From an uncultured Candidatus Saccharibacteria bacterium (GTDB lineage: Bacteria; Patescibacteriota; Saccharimonadia; Saccharimonadales; JAGQNJ01), in assembly GCA_964510945.1 (NCBI GenBank), contig CAZEED010000001.1, positions 98,774-162,773 of the forward strand: 64,000 bases of DNA, given 5' to 3'. A program made the translations under genes and the position numbers. Positions 3,930 through 22,457 of the stretch are shown here, in pieces. Every line of letters starts with the position of its first letter. The stretch's first letter is position 1. The notes beneath the pieces are model-generated. The model searched no databases and was not told where the DNA came from. It worked only from the letters and a program-made list of their open reading frames with translations.

Positions 3930-3955
3930 AAGAAGAATAGGTAAATTACATAAAC

Positions 3956-3983
3956 GGCACTCTTGACCCATGTCAAGAATGCC
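3956..3983. promoter_or_regulatory. Imperfect palindrome GGCACTCTTGAC-CCAT-GTCAAGAATGCC sharing its left arm with the CIRCE sites
   Basis: 12-nt arms with one mismatch; the left arm GCACTCTTGAC also occurs at 4141 and 20409. Confidence 0.35.
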
Positions 3984-4029
3984 AAGTATGTTCATCCGCT
4001 GGCACTATCTCTCCAGCGAACTACTCTAA

Positions 4030-4096
4030 CTATTTAGTAATAACTTCACTTTAGTGTAGCTACGGCTACACTAAACTCTGAGTTATTACTAAATAG
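4030..4096. other. Long stable hairpin (16 bp + 11 bp stems, C-TACG-G apical tetraloop) in the nusA-clpC spacer
   Basis: CTATTTAGTAATAACT/AGTTATTACTAAATAG and TTTAGTGTAGC/GCTACACTAAA pair perfectly; 4x5 internal loop; loop TACG at 4061-4064; no T-run. Confidence 0.6.
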
Positions 4097-4137
4097 CGAG
4101 TACTTCATCTTTATAGATACGCTTTCGAACAAACATA

Positions 4138-4175
4138 TTGGCACTCTTGACATGAGAGTGCTAATTTCATAATAT
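4138..4175 (+). promoter_or_regulatory. CIRCE-like operator overlapping the clpC promoter
   Basis: TTGGCACTC-N9-GAGTGCTAA (4138-4164) versus consensus TTAGCACTC-N9-GAGTGCTAA (17/18). The spacer starts with TTGACA (4147-4152); 17 nt later is TAATAT (4170-4175). Confidence 0.7.
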
Positions 4176-4226
4176 GGGAATACGATTATAGTCGTATACA
4201 AAATTAATTCGAGGGATAATTAATAC

Positions 4227-6701
4227 ATGCACCCAAATTCATCTGACTTTCAAGAGTTCTTAAATCACCTGACGGAAAACGCCCTGCAAAGTTTGCGACA
4301 CGCCGACGCTATTGCTCGTAGTGCAAATAGTCCGTACGTAGGTACAGAGCACCTACTGCTCGGTGTATTGGCGCAGGAAGGGTCGTTAGGCTCAAAAGTG
4401 TTAGTTGACGCAGGCGTAACTCTTGATAAAGCTCGGGTTGCGCTAAATCTAAGCCCAAAGAATATCATAATTAATATGGGCGCTAAGGGGCTGAGTGAGA
4501 CCGCAAAATTGACATTAAAAATGGCCTACGATGTAGCACAGGAATTTAATCAAGAGTTCTGCGGGACAGAGCATATTGTGTATAGTATTTTGACTCAGAA
4601 GAATGCTCGAGCCACAGTTTTGGTTAGAGATATGAGAGTTGATGTTGATCGACTAATAACTGAGCTAGAACAATTTTTAAATAAGCAACAATATGATGAG
4701 AACGGCAGTCCGGGTTCAACAAAGCGAGTTAAAAAAGGCAGAAAAACTGCTTTAGACTTTTTTGGCACAGATTTGACCGCTCAGGCAAAAGAAGGAAAGC
4801 TTGATCCAGTAGTTGGTAGAGACCCACAGATCAGACGACTAATCACTATTTTAAATCGTAGAACCAAAAATAACCCAGTATTGATCGGTGAGCCAGGAGT
4901 AGGAAAAACTGCAATCGCTGAGGGGCTTGCTCAAAGAATAGTAAGCGAGGACGTTCCTGACGGTTTGTTGGACAAAAAGATAATAATGCTCGATCTAGCG
5001 GGTATGATCGCAGGGACTAAATACAGGGGCGAATTTGAAGATCGCCTGAAGAAAGTCATGAATGAACTAGAACGAGATAGGAATATTATAATTTTTATCG
5101 ACGAACTTCATTTGATTGTTGGTGCAGGCGCCGCTGAGGGTGCTATGGATGCCGGGAATATTCTAAAACCGGCACTCGCTCGAGGTAAGATTCAGATGAT
5201 TGGTGCTACGACGACAAATGAATATACTAAGCACATCGAGAAAGACGCCGCGTTAGAGCGTCGACTACAGCCCATTCAAGTGCCAGAAACGAACGTTAAT
5301 GAAACAATAGCAATCCTAAAAGGTCTGCGTAAACATTACGAAGCTTTCCACGGAGTAACTATTAGCGATGAAGTTATAACGGATACTGTTCAGCTAGCTA
5401 AAAGGTATATTAATGACAGATTCATGCCTGATAAAGCAATTGATCTTATAGACGAGACTGCGGCGCATCTTCGCCTAGATAAAGGTAGAACACCACCGGA
5501 AGTGAGAAGGCTTAAACAAGAGCTGAAGTTAGTTAATACCCGTATTGAAGATGCAGTTGATGCGGAAGATTACGAGAGAGCCGCCCAAAATAAACAAAGG
5601 GCCAGTCAGATTCAAGAAGAGCTCAAAAAACTAAATTCAAATGAAAAAGTAAACAAAAAAATTGTTATGAATAGCGAGGATGTCGCCGGAACAGTTGCAC
5701 GTATGACCGGTGTACCAGCTAGAAAAGTTATTAGATCTGAAGCAAAGTATCTGATGAACCTAGAAAAGTCTTTAGGTAAGTATGTTATAGGTCAAGACGA
5801 GGCCGTTGAGGCCGTATCTAAGGCTATTAGACGAAATAGATCAGGAGTTGGTAGCGAAAAACGGCCTGTTGGCTCATTCATTTTCCTAGGACCAACAGGG
5901 GTAGGTAAAACGGAACTTGCTAGAGTGCTGGCTAGAGAATTTTATGGATCAGAAGAAGCGCTAGTAAAAATAGACATGAGTGAATTTAGCGAACGACATA
6001 CTGTTGCGCGTTTAGTAGGTGCTCCTGCAGGATACGTTGGATACGATGATGGCGGACAATTAACTGACAAAATCAGACGTCAACCTTATAGTTTAGTTTT
6101 GTTTGACGAGATTGAAAAAGCTCATCCTGAAGTTTTTAACATGCTACTACAAATATTAGAAGATGGACATTTAACTGACGCCAAAGGACGAAAAATTGAT
6201 TTTACTAACACTATAGTGATTATGACTAGCAATATCGGAGCCGAAAAACTCCAGAAAGAAGCGTCATTTGGCTTTTCGGTAAACACTAGCAAACAATTAG
6301 AAAATCTCGACGAGCTTCACAAAGCCAATAAAGATAAGGTGCTAGATGATTTGAAGAAAATGCTACGTCCAGAACTGCTGAATAGAATCGATAAAACAAT
6401 CGTATTTAGAGCTTTAACGAAAAAAGATATTATTCGAATACTTGATCTTCAGGTTGATGAGTTGAAAGAGCGTTTAGTAAAGCATGGTCTTAGCGTTAAA
6501 CTGACGCCTCAGGCTAAGCAATACATGCTAGACAATGGTTATGATGCCAAAAACGGTGTCCGACCGCTCAGACGGCTCCTGCAAGACACGTTGGAGGACT
6601 ATATTGCATCAGAGCTATTGTCTGACAAATATAAAAAAGGCGACATCATATCTATTGATACAAAAAAACACGATTTGACGTATAAAGTAGCTACTGAATA
6701 A
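4227..6701 (+). CDS. clpC: ATP-dependent Clp protease ATP-binding subunit ClpC (class I Hsp100)
   Basis: 824 aa; duplicated Clp_N repeat; Walker [16 protein letters not shown] and [15 protein letters not shown]; short coiled-coil/UVR-like linker between the AAA modules. Confidence 0.9.
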
Positions 6702-6725: not shown

Positions 6726-7694
6726 ATGAATTCCAGAAAGAAATCATTTGAGATATTCATTGTTTTCTGTTTATTGTTGGTTGGATTAGGATTTGTCTTT
6801 CGACAGGATTTGATGGATTGGTACACGCTCAGGACCTATGACCCTCCGGCATCTATTGAAAAAATAACAAAAACCAATAAATTCACCGAGTCAGGAAAAA
6901 GATATTTTTATGTAGCTCGTCCCGCGATCGTTAGAGGGGCACAATTTAATCAAAAGTGTCGGGATGGTTTGCCGACAGAGTTTTCTATAGTCCTGGGGTG
7001 TTATATCAATACTGACGGTATCTATCTTTTTAGAGTCACGGATAAGCGATTAAATGGAATTGTAGAAGTAACAGCAGCACATGAAATGTTGCATTCGGCA
7101 TACGACCGATTAAACAGTGATCAAAAAAACGAAGTAGATAAAATGTTGCAAGAAGCTTACCAGGGAATAAAAGACGTTAGGATTAAACGAACGATCGAGC
7201 AATACAAGCAACAAGATCCCTCGAGTGTCCCGAACGAACTACATTCTATACTCGGAACAGAAGTCGCAAATTTGCCCGAAGATCTCGAAAATTATTATAA
7301 GCAATATTTTAAAGATAGGACCACTATTACAGATCTGTCGTCTAGCTATGAATCAGAATTTAGCTCAAGACAGAATAAGGCCGACCAAATTGGCTTGCAG
7401 CTTTCGGGCCTTAAGTCTGAAATTGATTCCGCCCAGCAGTCAGCTAATCAAAAGCGCGCCCAACTCTTAGGTGATAAAAGTTCGTTAGATGATTTATTGG
7501 CGAGCGGAAAAACAGACGAGTATAATTCGCGTGTCGATTCATTCAATAACGAAGTCGCTGTTTACAACGCACTCGTTAAGCAAATTCAAACAAAAATAAA
7601 GTCGTATAACTTGCTGGTAGCCGAGTACCAAGACGTTTCTGTAGAGATAAATGATTTATATCAATCTATAGACAGCCGTCCAAAGTCCCTGTAA
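6726..7694 (+). CDS. Hypothetical membrane-anchored protein with HExxH motif and coiled-coil C-terminus
   Basis: N-terminal hydrophobic helix (IFIVFCLLLVGLGFVF), AAHEMLHSAY, Q/S/L-rich C-terminal third; family not recognised. Confidence 0.5.
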   Translation: MNSRKKSFEIFIVFCLLLVGLGFVFRQDLMDWYTLRTYDPPASIEKITKTNKFTESGKRYFYVARPAIVRGAQFNQKCRDGLPTEFSIVLGCYINTDGIYLFRVTDKRLNGIVEVTAAHEMLHSAYDRLNSDQKNEVDKMLQEAYQGIKDVRIKRTIEQYKQQDPSSVPNELHSILGTEVANLPEDLENYYKQYFKDRTTITDLSSSYESEFSSRQNKADQIGLQLSGLKSEIDSAQQSANQKRAQLLGDKSSLDDLLASGKTDEYNSRVDSFNNEVAVYNALVKQIQTKIKSYNLLVAEYQDVSVEINDLYQSIDSRPKSL

Positions 7695-18235: not shown

Positions 18236-18691
18236 ATGCGAGCGATAAATCATGCGTTAACTGGGTCGATTATTGGATTTATTATTGTGAGTCCAATTGC
18301 TATTCCAATAGCTTTTGCTTCGCATTTTGTTCTCGATAGTTTGCCTCATTATGGAGACAGAAGTAGATCCGAGGTGGAAATTCACAACAGTAAGGAATTT
18401 AAAGTATTGCTCGTAATCGACGCAATTTTGTGCGGGCTACTCGTGATTGTACTTGGTATTAGCGGTGCAGATAACTGGCAATTAGCGGGTCTGTGTGCGT
18501 TTGCAGCTGCATCGCCAGACTTGTTTTCTATTCCACGATTTAAACGGTCAATAACTGAAAAGAAGGAATACGTCGGTAATGCATTTCAGAGATTCCACAA
18601 AAAGATCCAATGGGGCGAAAAACCTTGGGGTAAGTACGTTGAAATTTTTTGGTTTAGTGCCTCAGTTGTAATACTGGCAATAATTATCTGA
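18236..18691 (+). CDS. Small integral membrane protein (possibly YdjM/DUF457-like)
   Basis: 151 aa, 4 predicted hydrophobic segments, His residues near helix ends; TAAATG junction with hisS. Confidence 0.45.
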   Translation: MRAINHALTGSIIGFIIVSPIAIPIAFASHFVLDSLPHYGDRSRSEVEIHNSKEFKVLLVIDAILCGLLVIVLGISGADNWQLAGLCAFAAASPDLFSIPRFKRSITEKKEYVGNAFQRFHKKIQWGEKPWGKYVEIFWFSASVVILAIII

Positions 18692-18711: not shown

Positions 18712-19992
18712 ATGCAAGTAAAAAGACAAAATATCACTGATACAAAATTAACACTGACGGTTTCGGCTGATCCTAAAGATCTTGAGACAATTAAACAGAT
18801 TACACTCGAAAGACTTCGATCATCCGTAAAGCTACCAGGTTTTCGTGAAGGAAAAGTTCCTATCAATCTAGTCGAGAAAAACGTTGATCAGCAGACTTTA
18901 CAGACAGAGTTTATGGATGAAGCGCTAAATCAGTTGTATCCGCAGGCTGCGAAAAACGAAAAAATTCGACCTGTCGATAGACCCAAGATATCTATTAAAA
19001 AGTTCGTACCGTATGCAGACTTAGAATTCGAAGCAGAAGTTGAGATATTAGGACCAATAAAGCTCGCTAATTACAAAACCATAAAAAAACCTCTAAATAA
19101 AGTGTCTGTAACGGATAAAGAAGTTGACGATGTGTTGGATAATTTAGCTATAAGACAATCTAATAAAACTGAAGTTAAACGATTAGCAAAAAATTCTGAT
19201 GAAGTTTGGATTGATTTTAGTGGAGTCGACTCAAAAAACCAGCCCATTCCTGGTGCAGACGGTAAAGACTATCCTTTAGTACTTGGCAGTAAAACGTTTA
19301 TTCCTGGTTTTGAAGAAAAGTTAGTTGGTAAAAAAGCCAAAGATGAAGTCACATTTACACTGACATTTCCTAAAGACTATGGTGCAAAAAAACTTGCCGG
19401 TCAAAAAGTCACATTTACAGTGACCGTTAAAAAAGTCGAAGAAGTTACAAAACCCAAGATTGACGATGATTTTGCAAAAAACGCCGGACCATTCAAAAAC
19501 CTCGCAGGGCTAAAATCTGACATTAAAGCCCAGCTGTTGGCTGAAAAGCAAAAACAGGTGTTGCAGCAACAAGAATCAGATATTATTCGTGAAGTTACTG
19601 AAAAATCGACTGTTTCTATACCAGATTCACTTGTTACTGATCAAGTTGAACGACTGCTTCAAGATTTTAAACAAGATCTTACTTATCGTGGTTTAACCTA
19701 TCCAGAGTTTTTAAAACAAGAAGGTTTTACTAAAGAATCGTATAAAGAAGAAGTATTACTCCCTGAAGCGAAGAGTAGAGTTAAAGCTGGACTAGTATTG
19801 GCAGAAATAGCTGAAAAAGAAAGTATAAGTGTGTCGTCTGATGAGGTTGACGCAAGGATCCAGACTTTAAAAGCTCAATATACTGATCCAAAAATGCACG
19901 AAGAACTAGATAAAGAAGATTCAAAACGAGATATTTCGTCTAGGTTAATGACTGAAAAAACTATCAACCAATTAGTTAGCTATTCAAAATAA
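18712..19992 (+). CDS. tig: Trigger factor
   Basis: 426 aa; ribosome-binding signature GFREGKVP, central FKBP-like region, C-terminal arm domain; tig-clpP linkage. Confidence 0.92.
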   Translation: MQVKRQNITDTKLTLTVSADPKDLETIKQITLERLRSSVKLPGFREGKVPINLVEKNVDQQTLQTEFMDEALNQLYPQAAKNEKIRPVDRPKISIKKFVPYADLEFEAEVEILGPIKLANYKTIKKPLNKVSVTDKEVDDVLDNLAIRQSNKTEVKRLAKNSDEVWIDFSGVDSKNQPIPGADGKDYPLVLGSKTFIPGFEEKLVGKKAKDEVTFTLTFPKDYGAKKLAGQKVTFTVTVKKVEEVTKPKIDDDFAKNAGPFKNLAGLKSDIKAQLLAEKQKQVLQQQESDIIREVTEKSTVSIPDSLVTDQVERLLQDFKQDLTYRGLTYPEFLKQEGFTKESYKEEVLLPEAKSRVKAGLVLAEIAEKESISVSSDEVDARIQTLKAQYTDPKMHEELDKEDSKRDISSRLMTEKTINQLVSYSK

Positions 19993-19995
19993 ATA

Positions 19996-20024
19996 TTGAC
20001 AAAACCACCCTTAACTTATACAAT
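19996..20024 (+). promoter_or_regulatory. Consensus promoter TTGACA-17 nt-TACAAT placed for a leaderless transcript
   Basis: TTGACA 19996-20001, 17-nt spacer, TACAAT 20019-20024, then 6 nt to ATG 20031. Confidence 0.6.
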
Positions 20025-20030
20025 AGTGTG

Positions 20031-20408
20031 ATGTCAAGGAAACCCGAATTAAACTTTGAAGACGTTCGTTCAAATGAAGATTTAGTGAATCTAGGTGTTG
20101 AGCTAGAAAGAAGATACCCTGAGCTTGAACTTGGAATTCTAACAGTCATGTCAAGATACATTGATACACAAAGAGGACCGAATGATGTTGATAACGCAGT
20201 TAACGGATTAAAAAGTTTGGTTATGAGCGGCATCGATCATAGCGACATGACTGAACAAGTAGTACAACCTCATGGTAGCGCACTTACCTCAACTACGTAC
20301 AGAAGGCTCGAAAGACGAGGAATCCTACCTGCTTTTCGGGTTGACGTATCGAAGTCGTCAGCACCAGATCATGGGGTCATTGGAAAGATCTTAACACGTA
20401 AAAACTAG
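20031..20408 (+). CDS. Hypothetical protein (orphan between tig and clpP)
   Basis: 125-aa ORF, no recognisable motif, own promoter, no Shine-Dalgarno. Confidence 0.45.
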
Positions 20409-20431
20409 CACTCTTGACACGAGAGTGCCAA
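20405..20431 (+). promoter_or_regulatory. CIRCE-like operator upstream of clpP
   Basis: CTAGCACTC-N9-GAGTGCCAA (16/18 to consensus); spacer again begins TTGACA (20414-20419). Confidence 0.65.
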
Positions 20432-20470
20432 TTAATGTATTCTATTTGTACAATAAAAGGAGAGAAAATA

Positions 20471-21070
20471 ATGTCCACGAAAGCATCATCAGTATTAATC
20501 CCGACAGTTATTGAATCAGATGGTAGAGTTGAACGGGCTTATGATATATATTCGCGTTTACTCAAAGATCGAATTATATTTTTAGGCACAGACGTTAACG
20601 AGCACACTGCTAATTTAATTGTTGCTCAATTGCTGTTTCTTGAGTCTGAAGACCCAAAGAAAGATATTAAGCTATATATCAATAGTCCAGGTGGTAGTGT
20701 TTATGACGCTCTGGCAATTTATGACACTATGCAGTTTGTAAAAAACGACATAGAGACGGTTGGAATCGGTATCCAAGCTAGTGCAGCGGCATTTTTATTA
20801 AGCTCTGGAACTAAAGGTAAGCGGTTTTTGCTAAAAAACGCCACGGCAATGATCCATCAGCCTTCAGCAGGTACTCGTGGCAAGGTTACTGATATGGAGA
20901 TTGACCTTAAAGAAGGTATAAGAATTAAGCATAAATTAAACGAAATTATGGCCAAAAATACCGGTAAACCTATCAAGCAAGTCGAAAAAGACATGGACCG
21001 AGATTATTGGATGACATCTGATGAAGCAGTAAAATACGGCCTAGCCGACAAAGTCATCACCAACCGCTAA
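20471..21070 (+). CDS. clpP: ATP-dependent Clp protease proteolytic subunit ClpP
   Basis: ORF 20414-21070; start moved to ATG 20471 behind AAAGGAGAG. Catalytic Ser context [37 protein letters not shown]. Confidence 0.93.
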
Positions 21071-21082
21071 AATACCCACTTT

Positions 21083-21682
21083 ATGAGTACATTGCAAAAT
21101 CGATCTGAAAAATATTTAGTATCAGTTGCCGAAGCGACTCAATGGATTGTTGAAATGGGTTTACCGGAAGAACATATACCCCAATACAATTCTTTAAATA
21201 GATTGTATTGGGGTGGACATTTTGGTCAGGCAGTAATAGTTCTCGCTAACCAAGAGCCAGTAAATCGCAGTATGGATCTAGGTCTAATCTATGCCGCAGT
21301 AAGTGCTCGTAACTCTTGCAGCTATTTGGGGACACCAATTAAATCTCGACAAGATCAATTCGCTAAATCGTATAGTAAATTCGGTAAAGCATGGGCAGCT
21401 GCAGATAATAGGTTCCAGAAGGGATTAGAGCCCAGTATGATGGGTGCGTTAGCATTTGTGTTCGCTCCATCAAAGAGCGAATTAAGTTCTCCAATACCTG
21501 GTGGTGTACTTATCGCGGCACATCCCTCAAATTCTGAATATTTGCCGGATTTCTGCGGATTGTATGGGTGGGATACTAATAGATATGCGCCTTTTGAGGA
21601 TGAAGATCATAAAGTCGGCGCAGCAGAAGACCATTACCCTAATAGACTCGGATTCCTATTACCTGAAGTTCAGCCAAACTAG
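21083..21682 (+). CDS. Hypothetical protein (cargo between clpP and the clpP 3' relic)
   Basis: 199-aa ORF; Trp/Gly-rich, no recognised family. Confidence 0.45.
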   Translation: MSTLQNRSEKYLVSVAEATQWIVEMGLPEEHIPQYNSLNRLYWGGHFGQAVIVLANQEPVNRSMDLGLIYAAVSARNSCSYLGTPIKSRQDQFAKSYSKFGKAWAAADNRFQKGLEPSMMGALAFVFAPSKSELSSPIPGGVLIAAHPSNSEYLPDFCGLYGWDTNRYAPFEDEDHKVGAAEDHYPNRLGFLLPEVQPN

Positions 21683-21702
21683 TCTTGGATCAATAAATCT
21701 AT

Positions 21703-21786
21703 GAAGACACGGATAGGGATTACTGGATGACTTCGGACGAAGCAGTAAAATACGGTCTAGCCGACAAAGTCATCACAAACCGTTAG
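21703..21786 (+). pseudogene. Relic second copy of the clpP 3' end (last 27 codons plus stop)
   Basis: Aligns with 20988-21070 (13 mismatches in 83 nt by my count). Encodes [27 protein letters not shown] versus [27 protein letters not shown]. An in-frame TAA lies immediately upstream and there is no start. Confidence 0.8.
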
Positions 21787-21824: not shown

Positions 21825-22457
21825 ATGGCGAAACTAGAACAGATAACTGCACATCGAGCTACTACACAATTAATGCCAGTGCGTCGGTTCGTCGAAAGAC
21901 ATAGATTTGATTTATCAAGAAATGCACCAGCTACACTTGATCGTTTCGGATCATTTTTCTCAACCGTTGTTAATGTGGGTAGATACGCAATCGATCCGTC
22001 AATCTTACAGTTTTTAGTCAGAGAAGATAAAACAAACCGCATGATGGGATTTGCAACTATAATTCCTAACATTGTTGTTGAGCCGCCGGTAGGAGCAGCT
22101 GTTACAGGAAATTATCTTGATTACGTTCTCTCTGACTCGGTATCAGAGTCAATTCACGAGTCTGTTTCTAAGGCTTTACTTAGACGGAACGAAAAGTATG
22201 AACTAAAATATCATGGCATATCAGAGTCTAGATTTGTCGGAGAAGAAACGTATGCTCAAGTGAATACTATTGCAGTTAATCGGTTCCCTGAAAGAGATAG
22301 GTATGACATACCCAACAGGGGTTTAATCCGAATGATTCCACCCCTAACGGGGGTAGTTTCGCTTGAATCACCACAAGTTACTGGTCTTGAAACGCAAGGA
22401 TTCGTTCCTTCAGATCAGGTTGTGTTTCACTATATGTCAAACCGAGCAGTCAGTTAG
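21825..22457 (+). CDS. Hypothetical protein
   Basis: 210-aa ORF; no recognised motif. Confidence 0.45.
   Translation: MAKLEQITAHRATTQLMPVRRFVERHRFDLSRNAPATLDRFGSFFSTVVNVGRYAIDPSILQFLVREDKTNRMMGFATIIPNIVVEPPVGAAVTGNYLDYVLSDSVSESIHESVSKALLRRNEKYELKYHGISESRFVGEETYAQVNTIAVNRFPERDRYDIPNRGLIRMIPPLTGVVSLESPQVTGLETQGFVPSDQVVFHYMSNRAVS

Follow-up and report, generated by a model that had tools for sequence, protein, structure and literature searches.

In Bacillus subtilis the CIRCE operator sits downstream of the promoter, and CIRCE is also known there as an mRNA-destabilising element. The consensus of this inverted repeat, TTAGCACTC-N9-GAGTGCTAA, is given in PMC545781 and PMC3842655, and groESL is reported as the sole constant member of the regulon of its repressor HrcA (PMC545781). 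In Mycoplasma pneumoniae the HrcA regulon comprises dnaK, dnaJ, clpB, groESL, lon and pepA, with the arrangement tig-CIRCE-lon (PMC7737663). The clpC operon, clpP and clpE form the class III regulon of CtsR in Firmicutes (PMC3842655), and clpP of Streptococcus salivarius is placed under both CtsR and HrcA by the title of a paper cited in the same article (Chastanet and Msadek 2003). In the literature searched, HrcA and CIRCE of Saccharibacteria are not the subject of any paper; the TM7x transcriptome papers list stress genes and are silent on HrcA control.

The window analysed here is a single stretch of DNA of 64 kb. The element in front of its clpP gene is very probably a CIRCE, the operator of HrcA, built around the -35 box of a predicted sigma-70-type promoter in a Saccharibacteria genome. 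It has the inverted repeat and the 9-nt spacer of the B. subtilis-type system (PMC545781, PMC3842655), with which the Saccharibacteria lineage also appears to share an autoregulated hrcA, dnaK as a target and a repressor acting on a housekeeping-type promoter. The two differ in their targets, which here include clpP, a clpC-like gene, hsp20 and dnaJ, with groESL found once among the Saccharibacteria-labelled matches listed; in the position of the -35 box, which here lies inside the operator spacer; and in the size of HrcA, ~235 residues here and ~340 there. The nearest analogue is M. pneumoniae, a bacterium with a small genome in which chaperones and an ATP-dependent protease are both under HrcA as their only specific regulator (PMC7737663). 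A CIRCE lies there between the genes for trigger factor and the protease, and in the window ~480 nt separate clpP from the upstream tig (18712-19992). In the window ClpP with a ClpC-like ATPase takes the place of Lon, the -35 box is embedded and the organism belongs to another phylum. As far as its title goes, the S. salivarius report is a precedent for CIRCE before clpP; the CtsR box is absent here, so control would be by HrcA alone. The CtsR system of Firmicutes has the same clpC and clpP targets and the same logic of a repressor overlapping a vegetative promoter (PMC3842655), but its operator is a heptad direct repeat and not the inverted repeat found here. The features of the two clp loci are collected in Table 1.

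Table 1. Features of the clpC-like and clpP loci, in window coordinates
Feature	Position	Strand	Basis or remark
CIRCE-like palindrome ACGGCACTC-TTGAC-CCAT-GTCAA-GAATGCCAA, 14-nt spacer	3954..3985	.	Left end of the module
Central module hairpin, conserved apex GTAGC-TACG-GCTAC	4030..4105	+	Fold, homologous copies, covariation
Sister CIRCE TTGGCACTC-TTGACATGA-GAGTGCTAA	4138..4164	.	Window scan; at the clpC-like promoter
Predicted clpC-like promoter TTGACA-17-TAATAT	4147..4175	+	Promoter prediction
ClpC-like class I Clp ATPase, 824 aa	4227..6701	+	Pfam, NCBIfam, short M-domain, FGF at 690-692
Putative clpP CIRCE operator CTAGCACTC-N9-GAGTGCCAA	20405..20431	.	Scans; orthologous position kept in 51/77 clpP loci
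CIRCE left arm CTAGCACTC	20405..20413	.	Holds the TAG of the upstream ORF 20028-20408
Predicted -35 box TTGACA in the CIRCE spacer, register 0	20414..20419	+	Promoter prediction and lineage-wide design
CIRCE right arm GAGTGCCAA	20423..20431	.	Inside the -35/-10 spacer; CCAA variant common in relatives
Predicted -10 box TATTCT	20438..20443	+	18 nt after -35; 6 nt past the CIRCE end, as in the register-0 class (5-6 nt)
Shine-Dalgarno GGAG	20459..20462	+	8 nt before the clpP ATG
clpP, 199 aa	20471..21070	+	Pfam CLP_protease E=1e-77; NCBIfam PRK00277 294.8 bits, above cut-off

Read on the + strand, the clpP site (20405-20431) is CTAGCACTC-TTGACACGA-GAGTGCCAA, a 27 bp inverted repeat in which the spacer TTGACACGA measures exactly 9 nt. 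It agrees with the consensus at 16 of 18 positions; both mismatches are outer ones and the inner 6+6 core is perfect. The initial annotation had given the same count, had seen TTGACA at the opening of the spacer and had placed the element just upstream of a Shine-Dalgarno-supported clpP start. These statements were borne out on re-reading of the sequence: TTGACA occupies spacer positions 1-6 (20414-20419), GGAG stands at 20459-20462 and the clpP ATG (20471) follows the end of the operator by 39 nt. The core that it had described as common to the clpP and clpC sites is likewise present, as GCACTCTTGACA-YGA-GAGTGC. The predicted sigma-70-type promoter of clpP, TTGACA-18-TATTCT, agrees at 10 of 12 positions, with a weak -10 box and a spacing of 18 nt; TATTCT is invariant in the close relatives L001-L010, also where the upstream gene ends differently. 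TACAAT (20449-20454), 17 nt past the operator, looks better as a box than TATTCT, and was rejected as the -10 box of clpP because there is no -35 box at 16-18 nt from it and transcription would begin inside the Shine-Dalgarno sequence.

Scanning of the whole 64-kb window with up to three mismatches returned two CIRCE sites, 20405-20431 and 4138-4164, against a chance expectation of 0.03 per window from dinucleotide shuffles; two sites were reached in 1 of 100 shuffles. The same two sites were returned by GCACTC-N9-GAGTGC with at most one mismatch (0.09 expected, two reached in 0/100 shuffles). Both lie on the sense strand, each before a Clp gene. The genes hrcA, dnaK, hsp20 and groEL are absent from the window.

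Conservation was assessed with 80 metagenome clpP loci picked by protein similarity alone (63-81% identity), 77 of which had enough upstream sequence; a CIRCE was counted when it had at most four mismatches and lay within 250 nt upstream of clpP. It was found in 51 of the 77, mostly with 0-2 mismatches. The initial annotation had named frequent random matches in A+T-rich DNA as evidence against its reading; elsewhere in the 383 kb of these loci there were no further CIRCE sites. Every usable locus with a ClpP identity of ~69% or more has the element at clpP, L175 excepted. At identities of 68% or less the loci mostly have no CIRCE at clpP, and on this comparison the membership of clpP in the HrcA regulon is therefore clade-specific, gained or lost within the group. 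The clpP genes that have no CIRCE (the clade L175, L181 and L184-L208) stand directly after tig or have a plain, often leaderless, TATAAT promoter. When all loci were taken together, the spacer was 9 nt in 219 of 226 arm pairs (at most two mismatches). The arms of the clpP operator are conserved as sequence and not merely as pairing, and the relatives with a different upstream gene end carry the symmetric arms CTAGCACTC...GAGTGCTAG.

The clpP loci hold 52 CIRCE sites, and TTGAC reads along the gene strand within the 9-nt spacer of 48 of them, in register 0 (27 sites), register 4 (18 sites) or register 2 (three sites); TTGCA is found in three more. By an arithmetic estimate a random 9-mer holds TTGAC ~0.5% of the time. 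The best TAnnnT after the operator was sought without use of the -35 position; its distance past the operator is 5 nt for register 0, 6-7 nt for register 2 and 9 nt for register 4, and the -35/-10 spacing stays near 17 nt across the registers. Because the -10 box shifts by an equal number of bases, TTGAC in the CIRCE spacer is, judged from these sites, a genuine -35 box. The earlier argument that its placement is not due to chance is thus upheld, since the embedded box recurs at orthologous clpP promoters and at other stress genes of the lineage, and the -10 box tracks its register.

The regulon was surveyed with the motif GCACTCTTGAC-N4-GAGTGC in one genome per species (185,579 species), with at least 119 stretches matched. 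Those listed are mostly from Saccharibacteria or other Patescibacteria, with some from Chloroflexi, Streptococcus mitis (hrcA) and others. The gene after the motif encodes DnaK at no fewer than 30 sites, a ClpC-like protein at no fewer than 24, a short HrcA at 23 or more, Hsp20 at 12 or more (confirmed with Pfam), ClpP at 11 or more and GroES/GroEL at three or more. Among the matches listed, L075 is the single Saccharibacteria-labelled locus with the motif before groESL, the other cases being from non-CPR phyla. The same loci hold additional CIRCEs, namely second dnaK operators, hrcA promoters with the -35 box in other registers, and dnaJ. Embedded TTGAC was also found in the Chloroflexi, Thermotogota and S. 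mitis matches, and the operator-in-promoter design is therefore not unique to CPR. Two CIRCEs ~46 nt apart were seen in the dnaK promoters of L013, L021, L025, L042, L054, L218:4465-4537 and L230:4143-4216, the first with TTGACA in its spacer and the second just after the -10 box.

In Saccharibacteria and other Patescibacteria, dnaK, dnaJ, hsp20, the clpC-like gene, clpP and the short hrcA are all preceded by this predicted operator-promoter, and in the loci surveyed the element is confined to proteostasis genes. The initial annotation had proposed that clpC and clpP form a co-regulated unit. Comparative genomics supports the co-regulation of the pair, and the predicted unit is larger than had been stated, comprising hrcA, dnaK, dnaJ, hsp20, clpC and clpP. 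ClpP and ClpC proteins identical to those of the window are encoded in metagenome contigs and in the MAGs GCA_041908185.1 and GCA_041908465.1; among named relatives, Candidatus Saccharibacteria or Saccharimonadales MAGs come closest in ClpP and ClpC (~78-79% identity).

The ClpC-like protein has a Pfam architecture of Clp_N and two AAA modules, with a middle region of ~55 aa, and scores under the ClpB and ClpA equivalog cut-offs of NCBIfam. Its short middle domain and the FGF tripeptide at 690-692 are ClpC-like features, such as would be expected of a ClpP partner. The clpC CIRCE is the exact break point of the Logan assemblies L212-L214, L217 (start = window 4132) and L215 (start = window 4150). 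Because independent assemblies break there, the same operator sequence of at least 31 nt is suggested to occur elsewhere in the genome or community. The 31-mer ATTGGCACTCTTGACATGAGAGTGCTAATTT is common to the dnaK promoter of L102 and the clpC operator region.

The clpC CIRCE forms the right end of a structured module of ~210 nt (window 3954-4164). The nusA-clpC intergenic stretch 3930-4140 folds with z=-9.5, and compensatory changes were found at 18 of the 25 pairs of the module hairpin. Searches with nhmmer and with covariance model R1 (89-133 bits) gave homologues in other genomes before clpC (L067), clpP (L136, L137, L163), hrcA (L083) and dnaK (L098, L129). Their pairwise identities are 35-59% and do not group by downstream gene. 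The left palindromes in the lineage consist of CIRCE arms and TTGAC-N4/5-GTCAA, with a spacer of 14-15 nt, and lie 185 nt (L083, L136, L137), 184 nt (window) or 174 nt (L163) upstream of the canonical operator. A promoter inside the left palindrome was considered and rejected, its -10 box not being conserved across the aligned copies. All contigs with an identical ClpC keep the module. No Rfam family matched it at the gathering threshold, at which the window yields four tRNAs only; no plasmid similarity of the nusA-clpC spacer was found, and the hairpin arm occurs as a single copy in the window. L136 and L137 are 99.8% identical downstream and differ by a 285-nt indel (L136:2486-2770), the edges of which fall in two CIRCE-like palindromes; L137 has a hybrid palindrome, and the stretch inserted in L136 matches the module model weakly and in inverted orientation (29 bits). 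The module may serve as an auxiliary operator or insulate against read-through, or it may be a cassette that recombines. That it is a recombining or mobile promoter-operator cassette which recruits genes to the HrcA regulon, or alternatively an auxiliary HrcA operator ~175-185 bp upstream acting by looping or insulation, is a tentative proposal that we consider unlikely.

These observations bear on the alternative that a single mobile promoter-operator cassette was recently copied to give both the clpP and the clpC site. The two window sites agree exactly in a 12-nt left core and in the -35 box, the module of the clpC site is found before different regulon genes elsewhere and the L136/L137 indel ends in CIRCE-like palindromes, all of which would fit such copying. 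The similarity of the two window sites nevertheless ends at the operator, and neither nhmmer nor the covariance model matched the module at the window clpP site. The clpP CIRCE is moreover kept at the orthologous position down to a ClpP identity of ~69%, which argues for old vertical inheritance, and recent copying of the pair is thus improbable. The initial annotation had left the choice between a conserved and a copied cassette. Conservation by selection fits the window pair better, because the two sites are alike only in the operator and the -35 box; copying of a larger cassette is possible for the clpC site, because the module precedes clpP, hrcA or dnaK in other genomes.

The predicted repressor of the lineage is a protein of ~235 aa that follows its own CIRCE. 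It scores 65.8 bits with Pfam HrcA and 26.4 bits with HrcA_DNA-bdg, both above the cut-offs, and has the HrcA winged helix together with the distal half of the C-terminal domain. On TIGR00331 (hrcA) it reaches E=3e-51 and 175 bits, below the cut-off of 197.2 bits because ~100 residues are missing. The Patescibacteria HrcA proteins (L024:3852-4562, L102 and P0001-P0120) measure 223-252 aa, ~100 residues fewer than the canonical ~340 aa, which raises the question of how they dimerise and sense stress. At least 8000 database proteins resemble the short HrcA at E<=1e-20; the top 120 of these are all 230-252 aa long and 85-99% identical to the HrcA of L102, and some sources label the database matches heat-inducible repressor HrcA. 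By this search hrcA is ubiquitous in the relatives. The loci ascertained by HrcA have the order gmk-hrcA-grpE-(pfpI)-dnaK, and in all of them hrcA is preceded by a single CIRCE and dnaK by two. On this arrangement a cognate, putatively autoregulated short HrcA is present in the lineage. The hrcA contigs of P0119, P0079 and P0115 are all from samples other than those of the window. The present model assumes that hrcA is present in the genome of the window itself.

Another regulator, such as a CtsR-like class III repressor or a CPR factor, might read the same palindrome. Such a reading would accommodate the absence of hrcA from the window, the truncation of HrcA in the lineage and the standing of clpC and clpP as classic CtsR targets in Firmicutes (PMC3842655). 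Against it, scanning for the CtsR heptads RGTCAAA-NAN-RGTCAAA gave none near either clp gene (4000-4227 and 20300-20470), while weak heptad matches in the window numbered 17, with 11 expected. In the lineage a canonical CIRCE stands before dnaK and before hrcA itself, as is characteristic of HrcA autoregulation, and residues 16-91 of Thermotoga HrcA (1STZ) align with the short HrcA over its winged helix. We regard a different regulator as very improbable.

The sequence upstream of clpP was considered with respect to a function in RNA: it might terminate the transcript of the 126-aa ORF before it or stabilise the 3' end of that transcript, or it might destabilise mRNA in the manner of CIRCE in B. 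subtilis. The stop codon TAG of this ORF (20406-20408) sits inside the left arm of the operator, and transcription from the promoter at 19996-20024 may read through the element. The palindrome continues inward, so that a 9-bp stem with a 3-nt loop can form (centroid -12.6 kcal/mol, z=-2.3). A T-run is absent, however, and no intrinsic terminator was called on the + strand at the clpP site; the element is retained in L005, L006 and L008 despite a different upstream gene end, and its arms are conserved as sequence and not through compensatory change. The -35 box in the spacer would also place the left arm outside the clpP transcript: because this arm lies upstream of the predicted transcription start, the clpP CIRCE could not act within clpP mRNA. 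An RNA-level role is accordingly very improbable.

The upstream ORF is itself preceded by TTGACA-17-TACAAT (window 19996-20024), which ends 6 nt before the ATG at 20031 of this 125/126-aa frame. The ORF is longer in L006 and L008 (143 aa), with a C-terminus that differs. Leaderless arrangements are common among the relatives, clpP or hrcA starting 6-7 nt after the -10 box in many of them (L130, L138, L163, L218 and others); the clpP gene of the window differs in having a leader of ~21 nt with a Shine-Dalgarno sequence. Downstream, the 3' end of clpP is duplicated in a 91-nt direct repeat (84% identical) at 20979-21069 and 21695-21785, with an insert of ~625 nt (about 21070-21694) between the repeats. 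The insert holds an ORF of 199 aa (21083-21682), for which no Pfam or NCBIfam match was found; it is missing in L001-L006 and L008, is present in L007, L009 and L010 and resembles a small integrated cassette by which the 3' end of clpP is restored. The conserved ORFs 20028-20408 and 21825-22457 gave no significant Pfam or NCBIfam match. Neither 6726-7694 nor 18236-18691 gave a significant Pfam match, the former having a sub-threshold NCBIfam match only.

A chance palindrome with no function in A+T-rich intergenic DNA can be dismissed, for although short palindromes are common and the clpP site is two mismatches from the consensus, the window is expected to hold 0.03 such sites, the orthologous place is kept in 51/77 clpP loci with none elsewhere in 383 kb, and the arms are conserved in sequence and not only in pairing.

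With the element read as an HrcA operator, repression would most probably proceed by occlusion. An HrcA dimer bound to both arms would cover the -35 box and the promoter spacer, of which the right arm takes up the first half, and RNA polymerase would be kept off; the -10 box TATTCT begins 6 nt past the operator. Heat or protein-misfolding stress would inactivate HrcA, and clpP would then be transcribed, induced together with the clpC-like gene of the window and, in relatives, with dnaK, dnaJ, hsp20 and hrcA. HrcA binding, occlusion and stress induction at the clpP CIRCE are proposed by analogy with the sensing, binding and induction behaviour of the HrcA family (PMC3842655, PMC7737663).

The mechanism is an ordinary and known one, and the HrcA/CIRCE switch here reaches the Clp protease genes. 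The departures from the textbook CIRCE/HrcA system are the target set, the systematic placement of the -35 box in the spacer and the shortened HrcA. The operator-within-promoter could serve as a stress-inducible expression part as genetic work on the group emerges. Hardly any study has dealt with transcriptional regulation in Patescibacteria (CPR), and the present loci provide a concrete, testable regulon for these ultrasmall episymbionts, in which the entire proteostasis set (DnaK/DnaJ, Hsp20, the ClpC-like protein and ClpP) appears to be under one short HrcA that acts through a compact operator-within-promoter.
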